Translations under genes and position numbers: made by a program
Part shown: positions 23,267-63,013 of the stretch, in pieces
Layout of the letters: every line of letters starts with the position of its first letter
Position numbering within the stretch: position 1 is the stretch's first letter
The notes under the pieces: model-generated
Databases searched by the model: none
What the model was told of the DNA's origin: nothing
What the model saw: the letters and a program-made list of their open reading frames with translations, nothing else
DNA from: Escherichia phage RB32
Sequence record: NC_008515.1
DNA: 64,000 bases
Strand: one strand, 5' to 3'

Positions 23267-23320
23267 TCCTCATGTTATGTCAGTAAGACTACTATAACAC
23301 AACACGAGGGACTTGTAAAC
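23267..23320 (-). promoter_or_regulatory. Early promoter cassette (-35 GTTTAC, TGn-TATAGT -10, 5'UTR, GAGGA SD); copy 1 of a 54-bp perfect repeat
   Basis: Read on - strand: GTTTACAAGTCCCTCGTGTTGTGTTATAGTAGTCTTACTGACATAACATGAGGA; identical to 38633-38686. Confidence 0.6.
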
Positions 23321-25377
23321 TACATTTTGAACTTTTTAGACATTCCGTTGATGTTAACCAAAGAAGCTAAGATTTGAGAAACTTCATTTTCCTCTTCTTT
23401 TGATTCTTCTACAAGGAATTGATTAAATCCAGTCATTGGACGAACTTCACCAGTTTCCATTAGATGGTCGCCATCATATACTGATTCCTCTAATTGTTCA
23501 GAAGGAGGAACGATTGTACCTTCGATTAGATACTTGTTATAAGCAGTTTCTTTCATAAAGTACGTACTTACTTTATTAATCTTCAGTAAAATTCCACGCG
23601 GTAGAATAACTTCAGCTTCTGATGGAAATCCTGATAAATGACCTGGAACGATAACTTTGATTCGCTCAGCTCCTTTAATTACCATACCCACGCTAGTTTC
23701 AGCATCTTCATTGGCATATGTAGAATGACTACCCGTATGCATTAAATCTTCTGCATCAACGGAACCTTCTCCTTCACCAGAAAATACTGCGCCGGAATCA
23801 TCTAGAGCCATATAGTTTTTACCATGCTCACCGAAGATATTTGGTTTAAGCGATGTGGATACGAAGTTCTTGAAATAGAACATTTTATTTTCAATGTTAT
23901 GACGCAAAGTTTTAAAGGTAACTTCTTGTCCACGATAAAGCGTAGTTCCTGGAGGAAGAACCGAACCTTTAGCGAATGCAGAATCCAACGTCTCGATGTG
24001 CTTAATGGCACGTTCCATATATTCTTCACGGGTAGAATCTGGTTTACCCAAAAGGAACGAGTTCATTTCAACATATGAATCTGCACAATAATCTTCAATT
24101 ACATCAGATTCAGCTTGAGTTAATCCTTTTGGAGTTACTTCGGTGCTTGCGTATTCATATGCCTGAGCGGCAGATTCATTAATCAATTTATAAATGCCAT
24201 TCATTACAAATTGAATAATAGCTGTCTTTTCATCTGGCGTAGCTTTAGAACCTTTAACCAAATCATTGATAATTTTCTTAATAACATCAAAGCTATTAGA
24301 AATATTAATATCAGCAAGATCGCTTAAAATTTTATCAGTTTTATAATCAAAGAATTCTTTATTCTTTAAATATTCTTGAGAACCTTGATATGTTATATCG
24401 CTCTGCAACTTGATGGATGGATCACGTAAACGTGCATGGGCTAATGCAATATGATTTCGGAAGTTTTCTAGTTCATAATCGCTAGATTTAAAACGAGAAG
24501 CACTCCTCATACCACCGATAGCTCCTTTGCTGAAGTTTGAACCAATCTGAATAACGCCAGAGTTCATTGGTCCTTCTGCTTTATATACCGGAACTTTAGA
24601 TTCAAACTCTTGATATTTCTTAGCAGCGAAGCTATCACCCTGAAGTGAAGCATCAACAGTAGAATATTGAGCTTGTGCTGCTAATCGACGACTAATTTTA
24701 GTTTTCTGAATAACAGCTTGGTCCGTGCGCTTATCATTTTCTAAAGCAATAGAAGCAGCAACAGCGACAGCTTTAGGAACAGCATTACCTGTTTTAACGT
24801 CTACATAAACATCACCAACCTTTGATTCAACTTTTGTGAATAACTCAGTTGAAATAGGAGGTACACCTGGAATGTCTTCTAAATTGGCATTTTTACGGTA
24901 AACCATAATATATGCATACTTTTTATCATAGTCCCAGATTTCCTTTAAAAGAACATATCGACCTGCTCCTTTAGTACGTACTAAACGGTCAGCAATAACT
25001 TGCATTTGACGAGCAGCGCCATTTGTTTTACTTTTTAGTACGCGGAATAGGCATGCGTCAATTTTATACTGCTTCATTGTTTGAAGAGCAGTATCAAAAA
25101 CAGCATTAATGACACCAATTGGATTTCCACCCAAGTTTCTAAGCTTAACCAGCGATAATTTCTCGTTGACACCTATCATTACGATATGCATCATTTTATC
25201 GCCTGGCTTAACGTTTTTATTCGTATCACCACCAGAGGTGTATGTACAAAATCTAAATCCAGGAAGCACGCTTTCTTCGCCGGCTTGAATAGCAAAAATT
25301 TGTGGTATTTTATGCTTAGGATTTAAGTTAACAACCGGCGCCGAAGCGCCGTCAAATAATTCTGTAATAAGTTCCAT
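23320..25377 (-). CDS. Alt-like ADP-ribosyltransferase paralogue (capsid-packaged internal protein type)
   Basis: 685 aa; N-terminal ~230 aa closely similar to Alt; C-terminal region keeps R (YRG), STS and EAE catalytic motifs; N-terminal MELITE suits gp21 processing. Confidence 0.85.
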   Translation of the reverse strand: MELITELFDGASAPVVNLNPKHKIPQIFAIQAGEESVLPGFRFCTYTSGGDTNKNVKPGDKMMHIVMIGVNEKLSLVKLRNLGGNPIGVINAVFDTALQTMKQYKIDACLFRVLKSKTNGAARQMQVIADRLVRTKGAGRYVLLKEIWDYDKKYAYIMVYRKNANLEDIPGVPPISTELFTKVESKVGDVYVDVKTGNAVPKAVAVAASIALENDKRTDQAVIQKTKISRRLAAQAQYSTVDASLQGDSFAAKKYQEFESKVPVYKAEGPMNSGVIQIGSNFSKGAIGGMRSASRFKSSDYELENFRNHIALAHARLRDPSIKLQSDITYQGSQEYLKNKEFFDYKTDKILSDLADINISNSFDVIKKIINDLVKGSKATPDEKTAIIQFVMNGIYKLINESAAQAYEYASTEVTPKGLTQAESDVIEDYCADSYVEMNSFLLGKPDSTREEYMERAIKHIETLDSAFAKGSVLPPGTTLYRGQEVTFKTLRHNIENKMFYFKNFVSTSLKPNIFGEHGKNYMALDDSGAVFSGEGEGSVDAEDLMHTGSHSTYANEDAETSVGMVIKGAERIKVIVPGHLSGFPSEAEVILPRGILLKINKVSTYFMKETAYNKYLIEGTIVPPSEQLEESVYDGDHLMETGEVRPMTGFNQFLVEESKEEENEVSQILASLVNINGMSKKFKM

Positions 25378-25380
25378 GAT

Positions 25381-27477
25381 TTATCCTTGAACGAACTTGT
25401 AAGGCATGTTTGTAATATCTATGCAAGACGCAATAATTCCAAGAGATGATTCTACTTTCTGTTTAACATTTGATGAAACAAATGATGCAAAGTCAACTCT
25501 GTCTTCTACTTCAATATCACCTGTCATTGCAACTACTTCGCCGGTTTCCATTAGACAGTCTCCGTCATAAATTACCGATTCGGTGAGTTCTTCTGTGGTC
25601 ATAACTTCAGCTTGAATGAGTTTTGTATTATTAGATGTTGTTCCGTCATTATTAGAAGCATCAGTTATTTTATTAACTTTGACCATCAACCCGCGCGGTA
25701 GAATAACTTCAGCTTCTGTTGCTATTCCGAGACTTCCTGGATATACAACATTAACTTTATGAGCTCCATCAATTGCCCATCCTATTTGAACTTTAACGTA
25801 TTCAGGATTTTCTTTATACGCTCTTATTTCGTTTGGATTAATAGTTATTCCTTCTTCATTTTTATCAACTGTTAATTCGTTACGAGCTTCTGGTTCTAAA
25901 AGACCAATACCAGCATGTGTAATTCCAAAACGTCCAAAAATGATAGGAGTTAAAGAAGTAGATACAAAATTTCTGAAATAGAACACTTTATTTTTAACTA
26001 GTGCTTCGTATATAGGAGCAGTCATACTTTGAGCACGATAAACTGTAATGCCTTCCGGTATGCGGTCACCATTTTCAAAAGCTGAATCTAAATTATTTAT
26101 AGCAGATTCAATTTCTTTTTCACTCATTACATCATATCGTTCTGGATTGTAACGACCTAAAAGAAGATTATTAATGTCTGTATATCCTGAACCACAATAC
26201 TCTCTAATACCGCGCTTTTGTGATGGAGTATATTTAGAACCATCACGGGCAATAGTAATATCAATCATTGGACCAGCACCAATTCCAGAAAAGCTATAAA
26301 TCATTCGTTTGAGGAATTTAGTTTTTGCTGCATTCCAGGCATTTTTAGTTATTTCTCCCCAGACTTCATCTGGTTGCCCTTTACGAGTTTTATTATGTTT
26401 ATCAAGCCAATTATCTTTATATTCTTCAAAGAATTTATTAACAGCTGCTGCGTATTTCTCTAAACATTTTATTGAAGTAGTTGGCTCATTTTTTATCGCG
26501 TTAAAAATTACATCTTTAATTTTTTCGGAAACTTCATCAACCTCACTTTTTGAAAAGAATTTATAGTCATAGTGAAGTTCATTCGCAGTTCCTTCGGCAA
26601 TAATTTTTGCTGCCTTAGTTTTAGAAGCTAATGAATTAATTCCAAGCTTCATTTCTTCTGCTTCGGGAATTAAAGGAGCGGTAGCAGGTTTATTGAAATT
26701 AGCTGCGGTAGATTCATACTTCTGGAATAATTCACTTTCAAACCTAGAAGATTCCAATGATTGACTTTGCGCAATTGCTCTACGGGAAATTTTAACTTTA
26801 ACGATTACAGCTTGGTCAGAACGTTTATCATTTTCTTGCGCAATAGATGCTGCAATTGCCTCATTTTTAGTTACTTGGGCTCCAGTATCTTTATTGATAT
26901 AAACATCACCGACCTTCGATTCAACTTTAGTAAAGAGCTCGGTACTAATTTCCGGAACTCCTGGAATGTCTTCTAGTGATACATTTTTGCGATGTATAAG
27001 AATATATGCATACTTTTTATCATAATCCCAGAGTTCCTTAAGAAGGACGTATCTACCACCTGAACGACTACGGATAAGTCTATCAGCAATAACTTGAATT
27101 TGTCGAGCTTGGCCAGCAGTTTTAGACTTAAGAATACGAAGCATACAAGCATCAATTTTATACTGACGCATCGTTTGCATTGCAACAGTAAAAACTGAAT
27201 TGATATAATTAATTGGGCTTGGACCAAGACCTTTTAATTTAGCAATTGAACCTTTAGCAGTTAATGTAAAAGGAACAATATGCATCATTTTATCGCCCAT
27301 TTTTAAATCGCGATTAGTATCACCTCCAGATGTATAGGTACATAAACGAAAGCCTGGTTGTTCAATTGCATCATCAACATGAACTGAAAAAATTTGCGGT
27401 ATTTTCTTCTTTGGATTTAAGTTTGTAATCGGAAGAGTAGTATCTTCGTCAAATAATTCTGTAATGAGTTCCATCAT
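25381..27477 (-). CDS. alt: Alt, RNA polymerase ADP-ribosyltransferase (injected internal head protein)
   Basis: 698 aa; N-terminus MELITELFDEDTTLPITNL recognised as T4 Alt; R-STS-EAE motifs present. Confidence 0.9.
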   Translation of the reverse strand: MMELITELFDEDTTLPITNLNPKKKIPQIFSVHVDDAIEQPGFRLCTYTSGGDTNRDLKMGDKMMHIVPFTLTAKGSIAKLKGLGPSPINYINSVFTVAMQTMRQYKIDACMLRILKSKTAGQARQIQVIADRLIRSRSGGRYVLLKELWDYDKKYAYILIHRKNVSLEDIPGVPEISTELFTKVESKVGDVYINKDTGAQVTKNEAIAASIAQENDKRSDQAVIVKVKISRRAIAQSQSLESSRFESELFQKYESTAANFNKPATAPLIPEAEEMKLGINSLASKTKAAKIIAEGTANELHYDYKFFSKSEVDEVSEKIKDVIFNAIKNEPTTSIKCLEKYAAAVNKFFEEYKDNWLDKHNKTRKGQPDEVWGEITKNAWNAAKTKFLKRMIYSFSGIGAGPMIDITIARDGSKYTPSQKRGIREYCGSGYTDINNLLLGRYNPERYDVMSEKEIESAINNLDSAFENGDRIPEGITVYRAQSMTAPIYEALVKNKVFYFRNFVSTSLTPIIFGRFGITHAGIGLLEPEARNELTVDKNEEGITINPNEIRAYKENPEYVKVQIGWAIDGAHKVNVVYPGSLGIATEAEVILPRGLMVKVNKITDASNNDGTTSNNTKLIQAEVMTTEELTESVIYDGDCLMETGEVVAMTGDIEVEDRVDFASFVSSNVKQKVESSLGIIASCIDITNMPYKFVQG

Positions 27478-27715: not shown

Positions 27716-29172
27716 AGACCAGTTACCTCATGAAAATCACCAAATACATCTTCGAATGTATTAGCTTTAGTTTTATCTTCACGTAAACGAATCGCAATCG
27801 GAAGAAATAATTTAACGTAATCAGTGCGGCCATCAGATTTTAACCAACCGTTGCATTCGCACTCTAGAATTTTTCCAATATAATAATTTTGGTTTTCCAT
27901 GATGCGAGTACGGTCAAGTTCATGTGATTTTACACCGGCTTTATCTTTTAAGCCTGAACCAGCATTTACTTTAATTTTTCCACACTCTGATTCAAGAATA
28001 AATCCACCTGCTTTAGTAGGGTCTTTACGGTGAGGATAAATTCCTACAATTTTTAAATCAACATCAATTACTTCTTTAAATTTATAGAGATTTTTTGAAC
28101 GAGCATTTTCCCACAATCCATCGGTATTTTTGAGAATAATACCTTCAAGACCTTGGTCAATATACTTTTTGTAAATAACCTTAGCTTCATCTAGGTTATT
28201 TACTACCTGGTTTTCAATTAAAATTACTTTATCATAGCCTGATGTCATTTGTTCTAGTTTAGAAAAACGTACATCATATTTTAAACGAAATGCTGGAAGA
28301 CCGTATACTTCTACCAACGGTACATAATCCCAGACCTGAAACTTCATGCATTGAGCTTCTTTTTCTGAAATAGTTCCTTTTAAAGATTTATTAGCGATTC
28401 CATTAGAAGCAGTACGTGATTCAGCTACTTCTGTGAAGTCTTTAGCTTTGCTAATTTCAGGAGTGTCAAAAAGAAAATCTAGGCCTTCTGATTCCTTTTT
28501 AACTTGCTCATGGTATACCAATTCGCCATCAATTAACACACCTTCTGGATGAATCTGGCGGGCTTCAGCAGTCATTTTGATTAACTCTTCCTTAAGAAGA
28601 TCTAATCCTAGGTATTCATTACCAGCTCGTGATAAAAGACGAACATCATCTAATTCATCACCTCTGACTTCAGCAAAGCACCGAGCTCCATCAGCTTTTA
28701 ATTGGGCAAAGGCTGGAAATTTGATATTCTTATTAATGCCTTTTTCATCATAAGAACTTGCCAGCATTTGAGGTTGTTCAGGAATTAAACCTGGCCAAAC
28801 TTTGTTTGCAATAGATACTGATGCACCGCATTCAAGGTCTCGCATCATCACCCGACGCAAAACTTCAACATCATCTTTTTTACCGTCAGTAATATATCCA
28901 GTTAATTCCTCAATTGCCGCATTTCCAGTCAATTTCCGAGTAGCTAACGTGAATTCAATGAAGTCAAGCATATCGGTAAGAGTCAACATTCCAAAACTCT
29001 GGGTAGCAATACCAGGTTTAGGCCATTTCTTGATATAATACTGTAACCCACGAGAATAAGTCAGACGATATACTCGTTTAAGCAATTCATTATCTTTATT
29101 CTTTTCAAGAATTGCTTGCTTCTGCTTAGTTGAACCAATAGATGCTATTTCGTTCAGAATTTTAAGAATCAT
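27712..29172 (-). CDS. 30: ATP-dependent DNA ligase gp30
   Basis: 486 aa; N-terminus MILKILNEIASIGSTKQKQAILEKNKDNELLKRVY recognised as T4 DNA ligase. Confidence 0.97.
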   Translation of the reverse strand: MILKILNEIASIGSTKQKQAILEKNKDNELLKRVYRLTYSRGLQYYIKKWPKPGIATQSFGMLTLTDMLDFIEFTLATRKLTGNAAIEELTGYITDGKKDDVEVLRRVMMRDLECGASVSIANKVWPGLIPEQPQMLASSYDEKGINKNIKFPAFAQLKADGARCFAEVRGDELDDVRLLSRAGNEYLGLDLLKEELIKMTAEARQIHPEGVLIDGELVYHEQVKKESEGLDFLFDTPEISKAKDFTEVAESRTASNGIANKSLKGTISEKEAQCMKFQVWDYVPLVEVYGLPAFRLKYDVRFSKLEQMTSGYDKVILIENQVVNNLDEAKVIYKKYIDQGLEGIILKNTDGLWENARSKNLYKFKEVIDVDLKIVGIYPHRKDPTKAGGFILESECGKIKVNAGSGLKDKAGVKSHELDRTRIMENQNYYIGKILECECNGWLKSDGRTDYVKLFLPIAIRLREDKTKANTFEDVFGDFHEVTGL

Positions 29173-29438
29173 TGTTCATCCTTTAGAGTTTGGTTTACAG
29201 CTCTATTATAAATCAATTCATCATTAAGCTCAGTCAAAGACCTGTGGTACGTGGTTCTAACTTTATTTCCTTGCATCCAGTGCTTGACGTAAATGAAACC
29301 TTGCTCTACACATTTTTTAAAAATTCGTTCGTCTTTTTGAGCTCGGAATTCTGGATTGCATCTAAAAAATTGATTTACGTGACCGTAATCACGTGTAGTA
29401 TTACCTTCATTTTCATAAATAGTGTGAACGACAAACAT
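29169..29438 (-). CDS. Hypothetical protein (position of 30.1)
   Basis: 89 aa ORF in tight operon arrangement. Confidence 0.6.
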   Translation of the reverse strand: MFVVHTIYENEGNTTRDYGHVNQFFRCNPEFRAQKDERIFKKCVEQGFIYVKHWMQGNKVRTTYHRSLTELNDELIYNRAVNQTLKDEQ

Positions 29439-30277
29439 TAGAATGCTCCTTGGAAAATATTATCACCACTAGTAGGTCTATTATACAAATACTCTATGCC
29501 ACCAGGTTTAATATAGTTCCATGTCTGAAACGGATGTGTCTGATATGGATGATATAGATGATTATAAGGATTAAATCCAGGAGTTCTCCAGGTAGTGTTC
29601 CAAGGAAAAGAATCGTTTTTAATCATCTTTTCAATTACATCTTTTATAGCTTTTTCACTATCAAAACTTTCTTTATTTTCCTTCGATGGAAAAAGCTTAT
29701 TCTCGACATCATTCCATGTATAAACTCGCTGAGCAGTTTTTGGAATACTGTCACGCTCCCCTCGAGCCATCCAATAAACAGGAACATTTAATATTTCACT
29801 CGCATGATCGCAGTGATGAGCGAGATCGTCAATATAACAAATTACGTTATATTTCTCTTTTGCCTTTTTGAACAACTCTTCTTTTGAAGAATCATGACCA
29901 CACATCATTACTTCTGAGAAGGCACCAGGAAAAAGAGCATTCAAATTAAATTGGCGATTCAACAGAGCGTCAATAGAATCACCTAATGCTGTAACAGCTA
30001 CAAAATTATAATCTTCTTTTAATTTGTTAATTACACACAGGGCATCTTTATACGGAGACAAGTAACGAATAAAATCTGAACGATTGTATTTTTCAATTAA
30101 CTTGACGCCAAGTTCTTCGTCACAATTAAAGAGTTTACCTGGAGAAATAAATTTCTCATCTTGGATCATTTTTAAAATATGTTCTAACGGAAGATTATAT
30201 TTCTGGGCAAAATAAGGAAGGCCTGATTGCCAGCTTAAACATACTCCATCAATATCAGTCAAAATAGTTGGCTTCAT
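29438..30277 (-). CDS. HAD-superfamily phosphatase-like protein (position of 30.2)
   Basis: 279 aa; motif I LTDIDGV, motif II FVAVTA, motif IV YIDD; aromatic-rich C-terminal tail. Confidence 0.65.
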   Translation of the reverse strand: MKPTILTDIDGVCLSWQSGLPYFAQKYNLPLEHILKMIQDEKFISPGKLFNCDEELGVKLIEKYNRSDFIRYLSPYKDALCVINKLKEDYNFVAVTALGDSIDALLNRQFNLNALFPGAFSEVMMCGHDSSKEELFKKAKEKYNVICYIDDLAHHCDHASEILNVPVYWMARGERDSIPKTAQRVYTWNDVENKLFPSKENKESFDSEKAIKDVIEKMIKNDSFPWNTTWRTPGFNPYNHLYHPYQTHPFQTWNYIKPGGIEYLYNRPTSGDNIFQGAF

Positions 30278-30738
30278 AGAGAGTCTCTTAATAGATTTAA
30301 CACATCAATAAATTCAGCTTCGGTTAGTATTGTATCATCTTTTGTTAGACCACTAGCCATGCTGTGCTTCAAAACTTTTCCTTTCGAGGCTTGTAATGCA
30401 TCACGAAAGCCCCTGTTTTGGATCGCTGCTTCAAAATATGCATTTGTGTATAATTCTTTCCACGCTGGAGAGTATCTTGAAAATGGAACTCCAAGCCAGA
30501 ACAACGTGCCACGGTCCTGAGCTCTAGCATAAGCTCGTCCAGCTTGTTGGGCGGCAAGCCCGGATAAACCAAATATACGACGTTGTTGTTCAACATTTTT
30601 CACTTTGCATCCTTGGAGGAATCCTTCAAGACCTCCGAATTGAATACCATCCATGACGAAAGGCCATTGGGCGAAATTGCTTAATGCACATGATGGCCAT
30701 CTAAAATTGCTTCTAATCTCTAACTCAGACATTTTCAA
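30274..30738 (-). CDS. NADAR/YbiA-like (DUF1768-type) protein (position of 30.3)
   Basis: 154 aa; LSNFAQWPFVMDG resembles the YbiA/NADAR signature FSNFAAWPIKVDG (from memory). Confidence 0.6.
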   Translation of the reverse strand: MKMSELEIRSNFRWPSCALSNFAQWPFVMDGIQFGGLEGFLQGCKVKNVEQQRRIFGLSGLAAQQAGRAYARAQDRGTLFWLGVPFSRYSPAWKELYTNAYFEAAIQNRGFRDALQASKGKVLKHSMASGLTKDDTILTEAEFIDVLNLLRDSL

Positions 30739-30931
30739 TACTTATAATTTCAACATCAGCCCAATGACCATAGCAAGGAAGACGAAATTCAACTGGCCAG
30801 TTAGGGTCCTTTTCTAATATAATAGACTTAACTTGTGGTTCTTCATGTTCATCGGTATATGGACCTTTATATGTTACTTTATATGTGACCTTAATGTACT
30901 GAATTCCAAAAATCTTATTAATTATATTCAT
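30725..30931 (-). CDS. Hypothetical protein (30.x cluster)
   Basis: 68 aa ORF overlapping neighbours at both ends. Confidence 0.5.
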   Translation of the reverse strand: MNIINKIFGIQYIKVTYKVTYKGPYTDEHEEPQVKSIILEKDPNWPVEFRLPCYGHWADVEIISIENV

Positions 30932-31125
30932 ACTAATTCCTTTAATCCGTAAATAGGAGATAATTCATCACCCATACGAATGTCTTCATTTCCATCTACC
31001 CAGGAAACAATATAAGCCTCTTTTATTTGAACACCACACCATTTAAATGGAGGTAGAACCTTAGAAATTAATCCAGGTATACCAACTCCCTTTAATTCAA
31101 CAGTTTGACCTAAAAAGAATTTCAT
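30928..31125 (-). CDS. Hypothetical protein (30.x cluster)
   Basis: 65 aa ORF with ATGA-type junctions. Confidence 0.5.
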   Translation of the reverse strand: MKFFLGQTVELKGVGIPGLISKVLPPFKWCGVQIKEAYIVSWVDGNEDIRMGDELSPIYGLKELV

Positions 31126-31463
31126 TAGAACCTCATTTGAAAACCGTGCGATTTAACATTACCGCCGCCAATATCAGAAATGTTAATTTCACGCGCAATT
31201 GAAGGGTCAATGTCAATTTCACGATTGAGTTTAGTGATAGCTAAAGTATCACGCCCATTTACTGTACGAAATTCTAAAGGACAAACCACATCAACGTAAT
31301 TTTTAATCGATTCACTGGTAGGTTGCAAATGTGCAGAAAGGTCTTTGGGCGCCTTTGAGAAAACAACTTCACAGAAATTTTTGCGGGTGTCAAAATAAGT
31401 AGTCATAAACATAATGTTTTCCTCAGTAAGGGGCCGAAGCCCCTGTTTTATTTTAAATATCAA
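31125..31463 (-). CDS. Hypothetical protein (30.x cluster)
   Basis: 112 aa ORF; start codon uncertain. Confidence 0.5.
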   Translation of the reverse strand: MIFKIKQGLRPLTEENIMFMTTYFDTRKNFCEVVFSKAPKDLSAHLQPTSESIKNYVDVVCPLEFRTVNGRDTLAITKLNREIDIDPSIAREINISDIGGGNVKSHGFQMRF

Positions 31464-31818
31464 ATTCGTTAAGAACTACATCAAAGATTGCTTCAAGATG
31501 CTCAGGTTTAGCTCTGTTACTCAGAATATGACGAATCCAAGTTTTAACCAAAAGCTTGCGATTAGCACCATTCCAGCAAGGATGAGTCCCTAAATCGCGT
31601 TGACGAAAATCATCATCCAAAGCAATTTTGAAGTTGGAACCTTCCATAGTGATGGAAACTGTAATACCATTTTCAAATCGCATATAAACGTAGTTAGGAG
31701 TCATATACTGTTCAATTTCGCATACTGATCCATTTTGATGTTTCCAAAGGCAGATGGTATCAATAGAACCTGCAATACCATTAGAAACATATTTACGTTC
31801 AAAGTTGATGTAGTTCAT
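31453..31818 (-). CDS. Hypothetical protein (30.x cluster)
   Basis: 121 aa ORF; ATG checked at 31816-31818; early promoter just upstream. Confidence 0.6.
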   Translation of the reverse strand: MNYINFERKYVSNGIAGSIDTICLWKHQNGSVCEIEQYMTPNYVYMRFENGITVSITMEGSNFKIALDDDFRQRDLGTHPCWNGANRKLLVKTWIRHILSNRAKPEHLEAIFDVVLNEFDI

Positions 31819-31855
31819 TTTTATTCTCCGAGATGTTTAATTGCAGTACAGGTAT

Positions 31856-31884
31856 ATAATATCATATCCTGTACCAAAGTAAAC
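31856..31884 (-). promoter_or_regulatory. Early promoter (GTTTAC, 17-nt spacer, TATTAT) upstream of the 121-aa ORF
   Basis: T4-early-type -35 GTTTAC and -10 TATTAT on - strand; -10 bracketed by inverted repeat GTACAGG/CCTGTAC. Confidence 0.5.
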
Positions 31885-31886
31885 AA

Positions 31887-32219
31887 TTATTTTACTATTT
31901 TCCAATGCTGCATGTCAAGTTTACCAACTTTTTTCATCTTCTCAATCAAACGTTCGGCACGTTGGCGAGCTGTAACATAATGCCATTCGCCTAATTCATT
32001 TTGTTCAATTTTTCCAACGATTACTGTATTCAATTCATAAATCCAACCAGTAAAGAAATTATGAACTTGAATTGTAAAGGTGAAATCTGTTCCCATACCT
32101 TCTGTTGTTTCTACTTCAATAATATCACCTTCAACTGCCATTAAGAACCACATAGTTTCATCATATTTACCATTGAAGCATTTAGTTTTAACTGTAGCGT
32201 TCAGATTAATCGTTTTCAT
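31887..32219 (-). CDS. Hypothetical protein (30.x cluster)
   Basis: 110 aa ORF; ATG checked at 32217-32219. Confidence 0.6.
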   Translation of the reverse strand: MKTINLNATVKTKCFNGKYDETMWFLMAVEGDIIEVETTEGMGTDFTFTIQVHNFFTGWIYELNTVIVGKIEQNELGEWHYVTARQRAERLIEKMKKVGKLDMQHWKIVK

Positions 32220-32246
32220 TTTATTCTCCTTTGTTTGTGTAAGATA

Positions 32247-32276
32247 ATACTATCACAAAGGAACTATACTGTAAAC
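32247..32276 (-). promoter_or_regulatory. Early promoter (GTTTAC, 18-nt spacer, TAGTAT) upstream of the 110-aa ORF
   Basis: Read on - strand directly upstream of the ORF start. Confidence 0.45.
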
Positions 32277-32293
32277 AACTTTATGTAATCTTT

Positions 32294-32323
32294 GGAAAAT
32301 AAAAAGGACTCCCGAAGGAGTCC
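32294..32323 (-). terminator. Rho-independent terminator (GGACTCC-CGAA-GGAGTCC plus T-run on - strand)
   Basis: Perfect 7-bp stem, tetraloop, T-run; directly after the 32329 ORF stop. Confidence 0.65.
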
Positions 32324-32328
32324 TCAAC

Positions 32329-32547
32329 TTATGCTTTCTGCTTACCAAAACGAGAAGCATCATCTCGAAGAACCGCACGTGCTCGGCGCATGATCTTCTC
32401 AACAGTTTGATTGATACGAGAGTTCGACCCACGCTTGTAGCCAGCGCGTTTAGAATCACCAACTTTCTTTTCAACTGCTTTCTTTGCTTTAGCTTGTTTT
32501 GCCATTATAAATTCTCTTTTAAATGAAAATGCAGGACTTATTGGCAT
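32329..32547 (-). CDS. Small basic (K/R-rich) protein (position of 30.9); start may be the internal ATG at 32505
   Basis: 72 aa ORF; lysine-rich MAKQAKAKKAVEKK segment; followed by terminator. Confidence 0.55.
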   Translation of the reverse strand: MPISPAFSFKREFIMAKQAKAKKAVEKKVGDSKRAGYKRGSNSRINQTVEKIMRRARAVLRDDASRFGKQKA

Positions 32548-33388: not shown

Positions 33389-33415
33389 ATAATAACAAAT
33401 AATTCTTAAAGCATT
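33389..33415 (-). promoter_or_regulatory. Candidate MotA-dependent middle promoter for gene 31 (AATGCTTTA, 12-nt spacer, TATTAT)
   Basis: MotA-box-like TGCTTTA and -10 read on - strand about 30-55 nt upstream of the gene 31 ATG. Confidence 0.45.
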
Positions 33416-33723
33416 TATTTACCAATAAATTGGAGCAAATGCTCAACTTTCATACCATTAACGGAAATCAATTTGTCAATAGAAAAACCTCGCCATGCAC
33501 CAAGCTCAACATCAAACACTGGAATCATGTCAGTAGATTCTTTCCGAGTAGATTCAGTCAATTTACCAGTTTGCATGGTTGGCATAAAGTCTGCATCACG
33601 AGTACCTTTCATAGTACGAATAGTACCATCAGACTTTTCAAAAACTACGTTTGAAACACCCATGGACAATTTAGTTTTCAAAATTTCACGAATTGCTACT
33701 TTCTGCTCAGTTGTCAGTTTCAT
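33415..33723 (-). CDS. Hypothetical protein (position of 31.1)
   Basis: 102 aa ORF. Confidence 0.6.
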   Translation of the reverse strand: MKLTTEQKVAIREILKTKLSMGVSNVVFEKSDGTIRTMKGTRDADFMPTMQTGKLTESTRKESTDMIPVFDVELGAWRGFSIDKLISVNGMKVEHLLQFIGK

Positions 33724-34876: not shown

Positions 34877-35109
34877 AGTACGCCATACACCCTTTGTGCT
34901 TCAACTAATCCATCAAAATCCAGTTTAAGATGCGATATTTGATCGCCATCACCTGGATTCACAATTACTAATACTGAACGAGGAGTTTCGGTAATAACGC
35001 GAACCGACGTTTCAGGAAATCGTTCAGAAACCTTATTTACCAATTCTTGAGCAAATAGTTTAACTTTTTCTTGGAATTCTTTAACAGTAATTGGTTTTTC
35101 GCTTAGCAT
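34873..35109 (-). CDS. Hypothetical protein (cd.2 position)
   Basis: 78 aa ORF. Confidence 0.55.
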   Translation of the reverse strand: MLSEKPITVKEFQEKVKLFAQELVNKVSERFPETSVRVITETPRSVLVIVNPGDGDQISHLKLDFDGLVEAQRVYGVL

Positions 35110-35630
35110 GTTGATCCTAGCTCCTTACTTTCAACGTTTTTAACTAATTTGACAGAAACTAATTCAGCATCTTGAGTAATCATTACCGGGCCTTCTTCAT
35201 ACTCTTCAAGATATTCTAGAGCTTTCTTTTTAGCTTCTTCCTTCGTATCAGTTTGAGCATAGATATAAAACATACAACCAGTAATACCTACTACTTTCCA
35301 CTTAATTTCTTTATCAGCTTTAATTTCAAATTTACTGACAGAATCATCTTTTTGAACTTCTTCGAAAAAAGAATATTCTAACATATAAGCAATTGAAAAT
35401 AACGGGCTAACTTTATAGGATTCACCCATTACATCAACAGCTTTATACCAACAATCATCAATTTCGCGTTTAATGCTAATAACATTTTTCGCAGGATCTA
35501 TTTTTACTTTAAATGAATTTTCCCCAATAAACTGGGCAATTCGTTTATTAGCCCCGCAAGTTTCATTAAAAATATCTTTATATCCAGCTTTAAAGCGATA
35601 AACCTTATCTTCTTCAAACCATTCGCTCAT
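35103..35630 (-). CDS. Hypothetical protein (cd.3 position)
   Basis: 175 aa ORF; ATG checked; early promoter upstream. Confidence 0.6.
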   Translation of the reverse strand: MSEWFEEDKVYRFKAGYKDIFNETCGANKRIAQFIGENSFKVKIDPAKNVISIKREIDDCWYKAVDVMGESYKVSPLFSIAYMLEYSFFEEVQKDDSVSKFEIKADKEIKWKVVGITGCMFYIYAQTDTKEEAKKKALEYLEEYEEGPVMITQDAELVSVKLVKNVESKELGSTC

Positions 35631-41534: not shown

Positions 41535-43799
41535 TCATAATTTACAGGATGAACAATCTTCAGCTTTTGGAGTTTCTATTTCATAATCATCAGTACCAGA
41601 ACCATCACGGGTATTATGATAATAGAAATTTTTAATGCCATAATACCATCCGTATAGCATGTCATCAATCATTATTGACATTGGAACCTTTCCTTTTGGA
41701 AAAATCTGCGGGTCATAGTATGTATTCGCTGAAGCTGATTGACATACCCATTTCAGCATAATAGCTACCTGCGTAAGATAAGGTTTATTACCTTTCTTAG
41801 CTAATTTCCACGTATAATCATATAGGTCTATGTTATGCTCAATATTGGGCACGACTTGATTAAAGGAGCCCTCTTTTGATTCTTTAACAGAGACTGGTCC
41901 ACGTGGAGGCTCGATGCCGTTTGTACTGTTAGAAACTTGGGAAGATGACTCACATGGCATAAGTGCTGATAATGTGCTATTACGGATGCCAAAGAGCTTA
42001 AGGTCTTCCCGCAGCGCCGACCAGTCACAAACGTATTTTGGAGCTGCGATTTGGTCAATCTTTTTATTGTACCAGTCGATAGGTAGTTCGCCTCGAGACC
42101 AACGAGTGTCTGAATAATATTCGCAAGGTCCTTTTTCTTTGGCGAGCTTAATGGATGCTTTAATGAGTCCATACTGTAATCTCTCAAATAGTTCATGTGT
42201 TAAATCGTTAGCATCTTCATAAGAAGCAAAGTTACTTGCCAGCCAAGCTGCATAGTTAGTAACACCTACACCAAGGTTACGACGCTTTTTAGCTTTTTCT
42301 GCTTCAGGAACTGGATATCCTTGGTAATCCAAAAGATTATCAAGAGCACGAACTTGAACTTCTGCCAATTCATTAATTTTATCTTGGTCTTGCCAGTCAA
42401 AATTATCTAGTACGAATGCAGATAACGTGCACAAGCCAATTTCAGCATCAGGACTATTCACATCATTTGTTGGAATAGCAATTTCACAGCACAAGTTACT
42501 CTGACGAATAGGTGCCTTTTCACGAATAAACGGAGTATAGTTATTCGTATTATCAATGAACTGCACATAAATCCTTGCTGTTCCTGAACGTTCAGTCATG
42601 AGCAATTCAAATAGTTCACGGGCTTTAATACGCTTTTTGCGAATATTAGGGTCTTTTTCTGCTGCTTCGTATAATTCACGGAAACGGTCTTGGTCTTTAA
42701 AATAAGAATAATAAAGCTCGCCACCCATTTCATGCGGACTGAACAAAGTAATATAATCGTTCTTTCCGAATCGTTCCATCATCAAATCATTCAGTTGAAC
42801 ACCATAATCCATATGACGAATGCGGTTTTCTTCTACGCCTTTGTTATTTTTCAAAACGAGAAGATTTTCAACTTCCAAATGCCAAATAGGATAATAAGCA
42901 GTAGCAGCGCCGCCACGAATTCCACCCTGTGAGCATGATTTAACAGCAGTCTGAAAATGTTTCCAAAAAGGAATAACACCAGTATGGCGTACTTCACCCA
43001 TGCCAATCTTAGAACCTTCGGCACGAATCATACCAACGTTAATACCAATTCCAGCGCGTTTAGAGATATATTCAACAATTGAAGCGGAAGCCTTATTGAT
43101 AGACTTCAATGAATCTCCTGCCTCAATAACAACACATGAACTAAACTGTCGAGTTGGAGTACGACAACCAGCCATAATAGGAGTTGGCAATGAAATCTGT
43201 CGAGTAGATACTGCTTCATAAAAACGAATAACGTGTTTTAATCTATCAACAGGTTCATCTTGATGCAGTGCCATTCCAATAGTCATAAATGCAAACTGTG
43301 GAGTTTCATAAATTTGACCAGTGGTTTTATCTTTAACTAGATATTTTTCTTTTAATTGCATCGCCCCGGAATAAGTAAATTCCATATCCCGTTCGTGCTT
43401 AATTTTTGATTCTAAAAATGTAATTTCTTCTGCTGAATATTTTGACAATAATTCAGGGTCATATTTACCTTCATTTACACAATAAGAAATATGGTCAATA
43501 AATGAACGTGGTTCATACTGCCCATAAACATGCTTACGAAGAGCAAACATTAAACAACGCGCAGCTACATATTGATAATCAGGCTCTTCAACCGAAATAG
43601 AATTCGCAGCAGCCTTAATGACAATAGTCTGAATATCATCAGTTGTCATTCCATCACGGAGATAAGATTTAATATTTTCATATAATTCATAAGGATCTAC
43701 TGATGTTCCTTCAGCTGCCCAAGATAAAACTTTAATAATTTTTTGTGGGTCAAAGCTCTGAGAAACACCACTACTTTTGATAACATTAATTAATTGCAT
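41535..43799 (-). CDS. nrdA: Ribonucleotide reductase large subunit NrdA
   Basis: 754 aa, same as T4 NrdA; N-terminal ATP-cone. Confidence 0.95.
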   Translation of the reverse strand: MQLINVIKSSGVSQSFDPQKIIKVLSWAAEGTSVDPYELYENIKSYLRDGMTTDDIQTIVIKAAANSISVEEPDYQYVAARCLMFALRKHVYGQYEPRSFIDHISYCVNEGKYDPELLSKYSAEEITFLESKIKHERDMEFTYSGAMQLKEKYLVKDKTTGQIYETPQFAFMTIGMALHQDEPVDRLKHVIRFYEAVSTRQISLPTPIMAGCRTPTRQFSSCVVIEAGDSLKSINKASASIVEYISKRAGIGINVGMIRAEGSKIGMGEVRHTGVIPFWKHFQTAVKSCSQGGIRGGAATAYYPIWHLEVENLLVLKNNKGVEENRIRHMDYGVQLNDLMMERFGKNDYITLFSPHEMGGELYYSYFKDQDRFRELYEAAEKDPNIRKKRIKARELFELLMTERSGTARIYVQFIDNTNNYTPFIREKAPIRQSNLCCEIAIPTNDVNSPDAEIGLCTLSAFVLDNFDWQDQDKINELAEVQVRALDNLLDYQGYPVPEAEKAKKRRNLGVGVTNYAAWLASNFASYEDANDLTHELFERLQYGLIKASIKLAKEKGPCEYYSDTRWSRGELPIDWYNKKIDQIAAPKYVCDWSALREDLKLFGIRNSTLSALMPCESSSQVSNSTNGIEPPRGPVSVKESKEGSFNQVVPNIEHNIDLYDYTWKLAKKGNKPYLTQVAIMLKWVCQSASANTYYDPQIFPKGKVPMSIMIDDMLYGWYYGIKNFYYHNTRDGSGTDDYEIETPKAEDCSSCKL

Positions 43800-44116
43800 A
43801 AGTCCTCAACTTGAAAATCGTCTTTAAACAATCGGTTAACTATATGAGCTATTATATCACCATGACACGGCTTTGGTTTACATGTGCATCCTAGCCTCAT
43901 TCCACGTAAAGGCTCTAAATGTGCTTTAGTTATTTCTCCGGATTTAATTCGACGTATAAAATCTTTTTTGAATAATTCAATGGCAGCCTCCCGGCTGCCA
44001 GCATCTTTACCGACGTAATTCCCCCAAAATGTACCACGGTGAATATTAACATCAAAGTCGGATTTATATTTATTCACTACCCGGCATAGACGGCCCGCGC
44101 GGTTGTAGGTGTTCAT
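43790..44116 (-). CDS. DUF4326-like small protein (Cys/His motif [12 protein letters not shown])
   Basis: 108 aa; pattern matches my recollection of the DUF4326 family. Confidence 0.6.
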
Positions 44117-59762: not shown

Positions 59763-60563
59763 ATGGCAGTAGTTGGAGTTCCTGGCTGGATTGGAAGTTC
59801 AGCCGTAAATGAAACGGGTCAGCGCTGGATGAGTCAAGCAGCTGGTCAATTAAGATTGGGTGTTCCTTGCTGGATGAGTCAATTTGCAGGTCGCTCAAGA
59901 GAAATTATTCATACACTTGGAGCGGACCATAACTTTAATGGTCAATGGTTCCGAGATAGATGTTTTGAGGCAGGTAGTGCACCTATAGTGTTTAATATTA
60001 CCGGAAATTTGGTATCATATTCTAGAGACGTTCCTTTATTCTTCATGTACGGAGATACACCTAATGAATATGTTCAGTTGAATATTGGTGGCGGCGTCCA
60101 TATGTGGGGTAGAGGTGGACAAGGTGGATGGACTCATTCCGGCGGAGATGGTAATGGTCAACAAGGTGGTCATTGTATTCAAAATGACATCGGTGGACGA
60201 TTAAGAATTAATAACGGTGGAGTAATTTGTGGTGGAGGTGGAGGTGGAGGTGGTATCGCTTATCGTCCTCACTCTGGTGCAAAATGGCAAGATATTGGTG
60301 GTGGTGGAGGAAGACCATTTGGCCCAGGAGGAGGCGGAGGTTATTCCGGCGGCGCAGCTTCTTATGATGGCCCAGGAGGTGGTTATAATTATGGTAATGC
60401 TCACTCTGGCCAGGGTGGTGATGCTGGCGCAAATGGACAAAATGCCTGGCATGATGGCGGTAAAGTTCTAAAAGTTGGAGCTGGTGGCGCTGCCGGATAT
60501 GCTGTTATAGGATCAGCTCCAACATGGCAAAATGTTGGAGTAATATATGGTCCAAGGGTATAA
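59763..60563 (+). CDS. 38: gp38 receptor-binding adhesin (T2/T6 type, glycine-rich motifs)
   Basis: ORF track starts at TTG 59751; ATG at 59763 gives 266 aa starting [19 protein letters not shown]; poly-Gly motifs separate variable segments. Confidence 0.9.
60229..60342 (+). repeat. Glycine codon tracts (GGT/GGA/GGC runs) encoding the gp38 glycine-rich motifs
   Basis: Runs at about 60231-60254, 60297-60312 and 60323-60340; they generate the spurious antisense/alternate-frame ORFs in the track. Confidence 0.75.
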
Positions 60564-62266: not shown

Positions 62267-62546
62267 ATTGAATCACCTTCAGTTGACGTTTTAACTCTTT
62301 TATCATTTCTTCGTTCATCGCAATATAAAGATCGCGTAAAGCAGGTTTTAGCATTCCATTTACCGGAGAACTAAATGGACATACATAATCTTTTCCTACG
62401 AGCTTTTTGGCGAATTCCATATCGCAGAACTTAAATCCCGGCTCATTGGTATAAATTCCCCAATTAGTTGACATCATTTTATTGGCATATTCCAATGCCT
62501 GGATTTGATTAGTAATTCCATCAATTTGAAACTTTTTAATATTCAT
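62250..62546 (-). CDS. Hypothetical protein (arn.x cluster)
   Basis: 98 aa ORF. Confidence 0.55.
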   Translation of the reverse strand: MNIKKFQIDGITNQIQALEYANKMMSTNWGIYTNEPGFKFCDMEFAKKLVGKDYVCPFSSPVNGMLKPALRDLYIAMNEEMIKELKRQLKVIQFGQGN

Positions 62547-63013
62547 TAGTAAAGGTCCTCAGAGTAAAGTTCTTTTTCACTACCACCACGTTCAATACGT
62601 ACTTGTCCAGCGTAAGTTGCAATAATCATTGCTTCTTCACGTGTCCAATAATTACTATATTGATCAATAAACCCTTGGTCATCATCACAAACATGGTCTG
62701 ATACAAGTTTATCACTTACCTGGTCAAGAACTTCAGCCATATCTTTAGAATAATGACGAGCACCAGGAATAACCAGAGTCCCACCATCTTTTAACTTAAA
62801 GCGGTTGGCTGCACACACAATTCGACGTTGATATTTTTCATTATTGTTCCAATGAGCTACTTGCCAACAGATTTCAGGAACCTCTTCTAAAACATCCTCT
62901 TCCGTATATTCGGTGTAGTCGCCATAGGCCTGTAATTTAGCTGCTAGACTTTCTGGAGTTTCACGTAATAAAGCCAGGTCTAATAATTCAAGACGCTCTT
63001 TGAAGGTTTTCAT
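62546..63013 (-). CDS. Hypothetical protein, 155 aa (arn.x cluster)
   Basis: ORF with ATGA coupling at both ends; no motif recognised confidently. Confidence 0.6.

Follow-up and report, generated by a model that had tools for sequence, protein, structure and literature searches.

An orthologue of the T4 anti-DarT factor AdfN in the gene 30 cluster of a T4-like Escherichia phage

The gene 30 cluster and the adfN reading frame

The window (the whole stretch of DNA analysed here, 64,000 nucleotides of the Escherichia phage RB32 record NC_008515.1) contains a gene 30 cluster arranged as 30.4-30.3-30.2-30.1-30, the last being the ligase gene. Positions 29000-32500 of the window are a 100% match to the RB33 record KM607001. 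Over the longer interval 20882-64000 the comparison with KM607001 yielded one difference, an extra G at about 60113-60115 (GAGGTGG vs GAGTGG), with which the frame of gene 38 (tail-fibre adhesin; 59751/59763-60563, plus strand) stays intact over about 266-270 aa, whereas KM607001 annotates gp38 as a 146-aa truncated form. This discrepancy reflects either a sequencing error in KM607001 or the origin of the window from a near-identical genome.

Read from the window sequence with a TTG start, the ORF of gene 30.3 spans 30274..30738 on the minus strand and encodes 154 aa, and both strings that an earlier note on this DNA had quoted from it (LSNFAQWPFVMDG and FGGLEGFLQGCK) are present letter for letter. 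The 154-aa frame described in that note therefore exists, although its start is better moved to the ATG at 30732, which gives a product of 152 aa, two residues fewer than the TTG form. The ATG is the more likely start: gene 30.4, which lies upstream, ends with a stop that overlaps it (ATGTCTGA); RB33 (KM607001 126392-126850) and T4 (128307-128765) are both annotated with this start; and numbering from it gives E36 and K43 as published. With this start, the coding sequence of adfN (gene 30.3) occupies 30274..30732 on the minus strand (152 aa and the stop codon) and corresponds to a single-domain NADAR core. The sequence and the alignment with T4 place the overlap of the 30.3 ATG with the end of 30.4 at 30725-30732, and the ATGA in which the 30.3 stop overlaps the 30.2 start at 30274..30277, both on the minus strand; the ATGA overlap suggests translational coupling of 30.3 and 30.2.

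The 30.3 ORF is a real gene and not a chance reading frame, as indicated by three lines of evidence. In the comparison with T4 gene 30.3, synonymous codons account for 20 nucleotide differences and non-synonymous ones for three; the product matches the Pfam family PF08010 (Phage_30_3) end to end (E=9.9e-70, 233.2 bits against a gathering cutoff of 36); and a tblastn search with gp30.3 yielded 1509 phage records with a homologue, from phages of Escherichia, Klebsiella, Aeromonas, Acinetobacter, Vibrio and other hosts. The '95% coverage' given for many of these matches is an artefact of alignment trimming, the C-terminus being identical in T4. The internal ORF 30.3' annotated in T4 is also open in the window (30369-30596, minus strand, in another frame, 75 aa). 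It bears no sign of selection, however: 64 of its 75 residues are the same as in T4, compared with 75 of 77 when these bases are read in the frame of 30.3.

Two genes encoding Alt-type ADP-ribosyltransferases lie in tandem on the minus strand, at 23320-25377 (685 aa; PF03496, E=5.6e-20) and 25381-27474 (697 aa; PF03496, E=2.2e-37). The pair of Alt enzymes on which the earlier note had remarked is thus present as full-length paralogues, in contrast to T4, which has one alt gene and the short remnants alt.-1 and alt.-2.

NADAR fold and conserved residues of gp30.3

The earlier note had taken the product for a NADAR/YbiA-like protein and had named a PF08719 (NADAR) profile match as a check. The Pfam search gave no direct PF08719 match for gp30.3 at E<=1, and the link to this profile appears solely at the level of the family profile and the structure. 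The NCBIfam scan of gp30.3 and the single-sequence search against PDB sequences returned nothing relevant, and the PHROGs scan returned solely family 652, of 'unknown function'. Since Pfam gave PF08010 without PF08719, NADAR status was sought by means of a family profile and structure prediction, both based on an alignment of 61 diverse gp30.3 homologues. The 61-sequence profile matches E. coli YbiA (2B3W) with E=0.0074 over a region spanning the SNF...E...K motif, and 10 of the 61 family members have a direct PF08719 match of their own (best E=1.5e-7). The confident AlphaFold2 model of gp30.3 computed on this alignment (pLDDT 92.9, pTM 0.88) has an alpha-helical core with two small flanking beta-sheets, the YbiA-like arrangement that defines the NADAR fold. 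Foldseek against the PDB returned as its top three matches 2B3W (YbiA), 8BAU (P. nicotianae NADAR) and 8BAT (G. lovleyi DarG1-NADAR), each with a probability of at least 0.99, while the fourth match reached just 0.04. The assignment made in the earlier note was borne out by these searches, with NADAR structures as the only ones returned and the catalytic Glu and Lys conserved, and the structure prediction that it had proposed agreed with the fold. Membership of gp30.3 in the NADAR superfamily is thus supported by the family profile, the PF08719 matches of family members and the predicted structure. The bioinformatic study of de Souza and Aravind had already counted gp30.3 proteins among the phage NADARs and placed these in the superfamily, as cited in Mol Cell 2023 (PMC11543638).

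The residues S18-N19-F20, E36 and K43 are all present in gp30.3, with the E-x6-K element following SNF and aligned with the SNF...E...K of YbiA. The catalytic glutamate Glu36 (codon GAA, 30625..30627, minus strand) is found in 61 of the 61 family members; in the comparison of the family profile with YbiA it shares a column with the Glu of SEHYFQ, and its counterparts are E43 in the P. nicotianae NADAR and E88 in DarG1 of E. coli C7. The phosphate-coordinating lysine, Lys43 (codon AAA, 30604..30606, minus strand), is a Lys in 59 of the 61, and PnNADAR (E43/K50) and the C7 NADAR (E88/K95) share its spacing from the glutamate. The roles of the NADAR Glu and Lys are taken from PMC11543638. A third residue, His123 (codon CAC, 30364..30366, minus strand), is invariant in the family (61/61) and falls within the last beta-strand, residues 120-123 of the AlphaFold2 model. 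A His in this strand is the hallmark of the gp30.3 phage clade; YbiA-type proteins have Glu at the position, and DarG1-type proteins Asp (literature including PMC11543638). The HMMER alignment of one family member (P0078) with YbiA stops at K118/V124, one column short of the His.

The model ends in a C-terminal alpha-helix, residues 138-151 (30280..30321, minus strand), and residues 138-152 are identical to those of T4. In RB69 a frameshift drops the last 15 residues of AdfN and thereby renders the phage sensitive to DarTG1 (PMC11825919). Unlike the RB69-type allele, the window protein has this helix at full length, and, judging by its sequence and model, it retains all the features that published work ties to AdfN function.

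Among the structurally related proteins, the NADAR domain of DarG1 (E. coli C7; Geobacter/Trichlorobacter lovleyi, 8BAT) differs from gp30.3 in several respects. The phage protein lacks its N-terminal beta1-beta2-alpha1 extension and consists of the core alone, with 152 aa against the 219 aa of 8BAT (133 of the 219 8BAT residues were aligned), and it has His123 where DarG1 has a catalytic Asp in the last strand. DarG1 is encoded beside its toxin DarT1, whereas the neighbours of gp30.3 are 30.4 and the HAD-like 30.2, the sole ADP-ribosyltransferases (ARTs) near adfN being the Alt-type PF03496 proteins about 3 kb off.

Relation to T4 AdfN and a probable role against DarTG1

The gp30.3 of the window and that of T4 are equal in length and identical at 149 of 152 residues (98%), and the three substitutions (A67S, R107K and M125I) are conservative and fall in variable columns of the family. 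The T4 gene has the same neighbours, 30.4 upstream and 30.2 downstream, with the same overlapping start and stop codons, and its product shares E36, K43 and H123 as well as an identical C-terminal helix. The window ORF is an orthologue of the experimentally characterised T4 protein and, as such, a finding already known.

T4 gene 30.3 was renamed adfN (anti-DarT factor NADAR) by Johannesman et al. (Nat Commun 2025, PMC11825919), who mapped the DarTG1 resistance of T-even phages to it; RB33 is not among the phages that they mention. In their work, deletion of adfN in T4 and T2 left the phages without plaques, specifically on DarTG1 hosts, and ectopic AdfN brought back the plaquing of RB69 on DarTG1; the gene is both necessary and sufficient against this system (PMC11825919). 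E36A, K43A and a 15-residue C-terminal truncation each impaired T4 AdfN; the purified protein took ADP-ribose off DNA; and DarTG2, which modifies thymidine, was not countered (PMC11825919). Hydrolysis of guanine-ADPr on DNA by T4 gp30.3 in vitro was also reported in Toxins 2024, where the protein did not rescue cells from DarT1 (PMC11125620), and guanosine-ADPr on RNA is hydrolysed in vitro by the T4 NADAR, which is less active on this RNA substrate than a DarG1-type NADAR (PMC11833690). Support for the guanine-ADPr activity of the T4 protein comes from four papers (PMC11825919, PMC11125620, PMC11833690 and PMC12945103), and papers that followed PMC11825919 describe the phage NADAR clade as inactive on cytidine-ADPr. 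In the methods of PMC11125620, the construct named 'T4 phage NADAR (gp30.3)' comprises residues 1-208, compared with 152 aa for the protein in T4; a few members of the gp30.3 family are about 201 aa long.

We estimate at roughly nine in ten the probability that the product of 30274-30732 is, as an AdfN orthologue, an enzymatic counter-defence against DarTG1. The orthology, the fold, the conservation of the residues and the intact C-terminus are established in this analysis; that the window protein acts like T4 AdfN, and the exact part of His123 in catalysis, we infer. The gene 30 cluster is an early region in T4-like phages (Iyer et al. 2022), and AdfN would be produced from it early. The DarT1 toxin of a host carrying DarTG1 would ADP-ribosylate guanines of the replicating phage DNA, and AdfN would cut the N-glycosidic bond between ribose and guanine, releasing ADP-ribose and restoring the template, on which replication and transcription could go on. 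In the active site, Lys43 would coordinate the diphosphate, and the distal ribose would be held by Glu36 together with His123. The earlier note had suggested a counter to DarT-like defence, and the 98%-identical T4 protein does neutralise DarTG1 as a DNA ADP-ribosylglycohydrolase (PMC11825919); this idea is correct, yet it is not a new inference.

The mechanism of AdfN is, nevertheless, incomplete as described. Whereas DarG1 rescues uninfected cells from DarT1, T4 AdfN fails to protect uninfected E. coli from it and gives non-T-even phages no more than a partial rescue (PMC11825919, PMC11125620), its full activity being confined to T-even infection (PMC11825919). The missing rescue of uninfected cells and the partial rescue elsewhere argue that AdfN relies on a further T-even factor or context. 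[quoted passage not shown]

On this reading, RB33 and nearly every T4-like phage would carry a working enzyme that counters the ADP-ribosylation of DNA by DarTG1. The presence of AdfN could be useful in predicting phage host range and in choosing therapeutic phages, although this adds nothing beyond the published work on T4.

Alternative roles and candidate partners

It is conceivable, if unlikely, that the main substrate of AdfN is ADP-ribosylated RNA (for instance guanines of tRNA or mRNA) or a soluble ADP-ribose-derived immune signal, with DarTG1 as one of several roles. Such a substrate would agree with the hydrolysis of guanosine-ADPr on RNA by the T4 NADAR in vitro (PMC11833690), and in three of 13 sampled genera the homologue lies within a cluster of tRNA genes or next to one, and not near the ligase gene (Aeromonas phage Aes012, Citrobacter phage Moon and Ralstonia phage RSP15). 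However, T4-like phages vary in their tRNA regions, so the adjacency may be due to chance, and its occurrence in three distant lineages may reflect either chance siting in a variable region or an RNA-related role. DarT1 is moreover a DNA ADP-ribosyltransferase, T4 and T2 deleted for adfN fail to form plaques specifically when the host carries DarTG1 (PMC11825919), and soluble substrates are absent from the assays in the NADAR literature cited here.

Two further roles receive far less weight. The earlier note had also raised the tuning of the phage's own modifications, that is, the erasure or adjustment of protein arginine-ADPr or RNAylation marks left by the Alt paralogues and ModA/ModB, and for this we found no support. 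Although adfN lies about 3 kb from two Alt genes, and T4-like NADARs are expressed early alongside ARTs (Iyer et al. 2022), the closeness of gene 30 and alt is ordinary T4 synteny, and the homologues in Aes012, Moon, K567 and RSP15 are far from any alt gene. The reported NADAR activities all concern base-linked ADPr, with guanine as the base or, in some clades, cytidine; NADARs are inactive on phosphate-linked ADPr, the phage clade is inactive on thymidine- and cytidine-ADPr, and arginine-ADPr activity was not found in the cited NADAR literature, which makes this role very improbable. The lowest probability of all goes to a housekeeping N-glycosidase that, like YbiA, would act on reactive intermediates of the riboflavin pathway, despite the fact that the closest PDB match at the sequence level is E. 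coli YbiA and that some database sources call the homologues 'YbiA'. In 61 of 61 family members a His stands in place of the last-strand Glu that defines YbiA, and a phylogeny puts the T4 clade nearest to DarG1-type NADARs and not to YbiA (PMC11825919). The phage protein also differs from E. coli YbiA (2B3W), the P. nicotianae NADAR (8BAU) and the PF08719 family in having this Glu-to-His change and no direct PF08719 match; the role of YbiA is a housekeeping one in the riboflavin pathway, unlike that of gp30.3, and there are no riboflavin pathway genes near adfN in the phage.

Counter-defence against DarTG1 remains our preferred reading, and a variant of it would make the T-even AdfN one half of a two-component system whose helper, either 30.2 or NrdA.1, is encoded in this window. 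The helper would process the released ADP-ribose, or it would stabilise or localise AdfN. We regard this arrangement as doubtful, with little probability attached to it. Gene 30.2 (29438-30277, minus strand) overlaps the adfN stop codon with its start codon, and its product gave no Pfam match. In an alignment of 53 sequences there is no variation at D8, D10, K132, D150 and D151 and almost none at T96; these residues correspond to HAD motifs I-IV. The AlphaFold2 model is confident over residues 1-195, the C-terminal 55 or so (about 224-279) being predicted as disordered, and Foldseek returned HAD hydrolases and phosphatases, including 5'(3')-deoxyribonucleotidases, with E values of about 1e-8. 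From motifs and model together, gp30.2 is a predicted HAD-superfamily hydrolase, phosphatase- or nucleotidase-like. It is found at most 1.3 kb downstream of gp30.3 in six of the 13 sampled genera, always between 30.3 and the ligase gene, and is not found in the flanks where 30.3 has moved (Tulanevirus, Moonvirus, Gelderlandvirus, Krischvirus, and one Vibrio, one Rhizobium and one Ralstonia phage). Since in these genera gp30.2 does not accompany a 30.3 that has moved, the linkage looks like inherited synteny and not functional coupling. Its occurrence in 1438 phage records, compared with 1509 for gp30.3 and with the same spread over genera, shows that both are widespread in Straboviridae, and no more.

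The DUF4326-like protein that the earlier note had placed in this phage is NrdA.1, encoded at 43790-44116 on the minus strand (PF14216, E=5.5e-22) and recovered in a Pfam scan of ten small ORFs of unknown function; a regular-expression search for GNPF/YIGR-type motifs, aimed at such a protein, gave nothing useful. DUF4326 is a rhodanese-phosphatase clade for which fusions with NADAR, Macro and SLOG domains are common, as reported from other DNA viruses, and its predicted activity is the processing of the ribose-linked phosphates of ADPr (Iyer et al. 2022). Homologues of NrdA.1 occur in 1781 phage records, and by analogy NrdA.1 is a possible functional associate of AdfN. Another candidate for the DUF4326-like protein, RB33_215 (35103-35630, minus strand), was set aside, as it had no Pfam match; this 175-aa ORF lies between cd.2 and cd.3, an interval in which T4 has no counterpart, and belongs to PHROG 3710, of 'unknown function'. 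Elsewhere in the window, gp31.1 (gene 31.1, 33415-33723, minus strand) has a WYL_2 / Sm-like SH3 match (PF10902, E=1.1e-20), and Arn.3 (62546-63013, minus strand) shows a weak, sub-threshold match to the prokaryotic E2 family B (PF14461, E=0.006).
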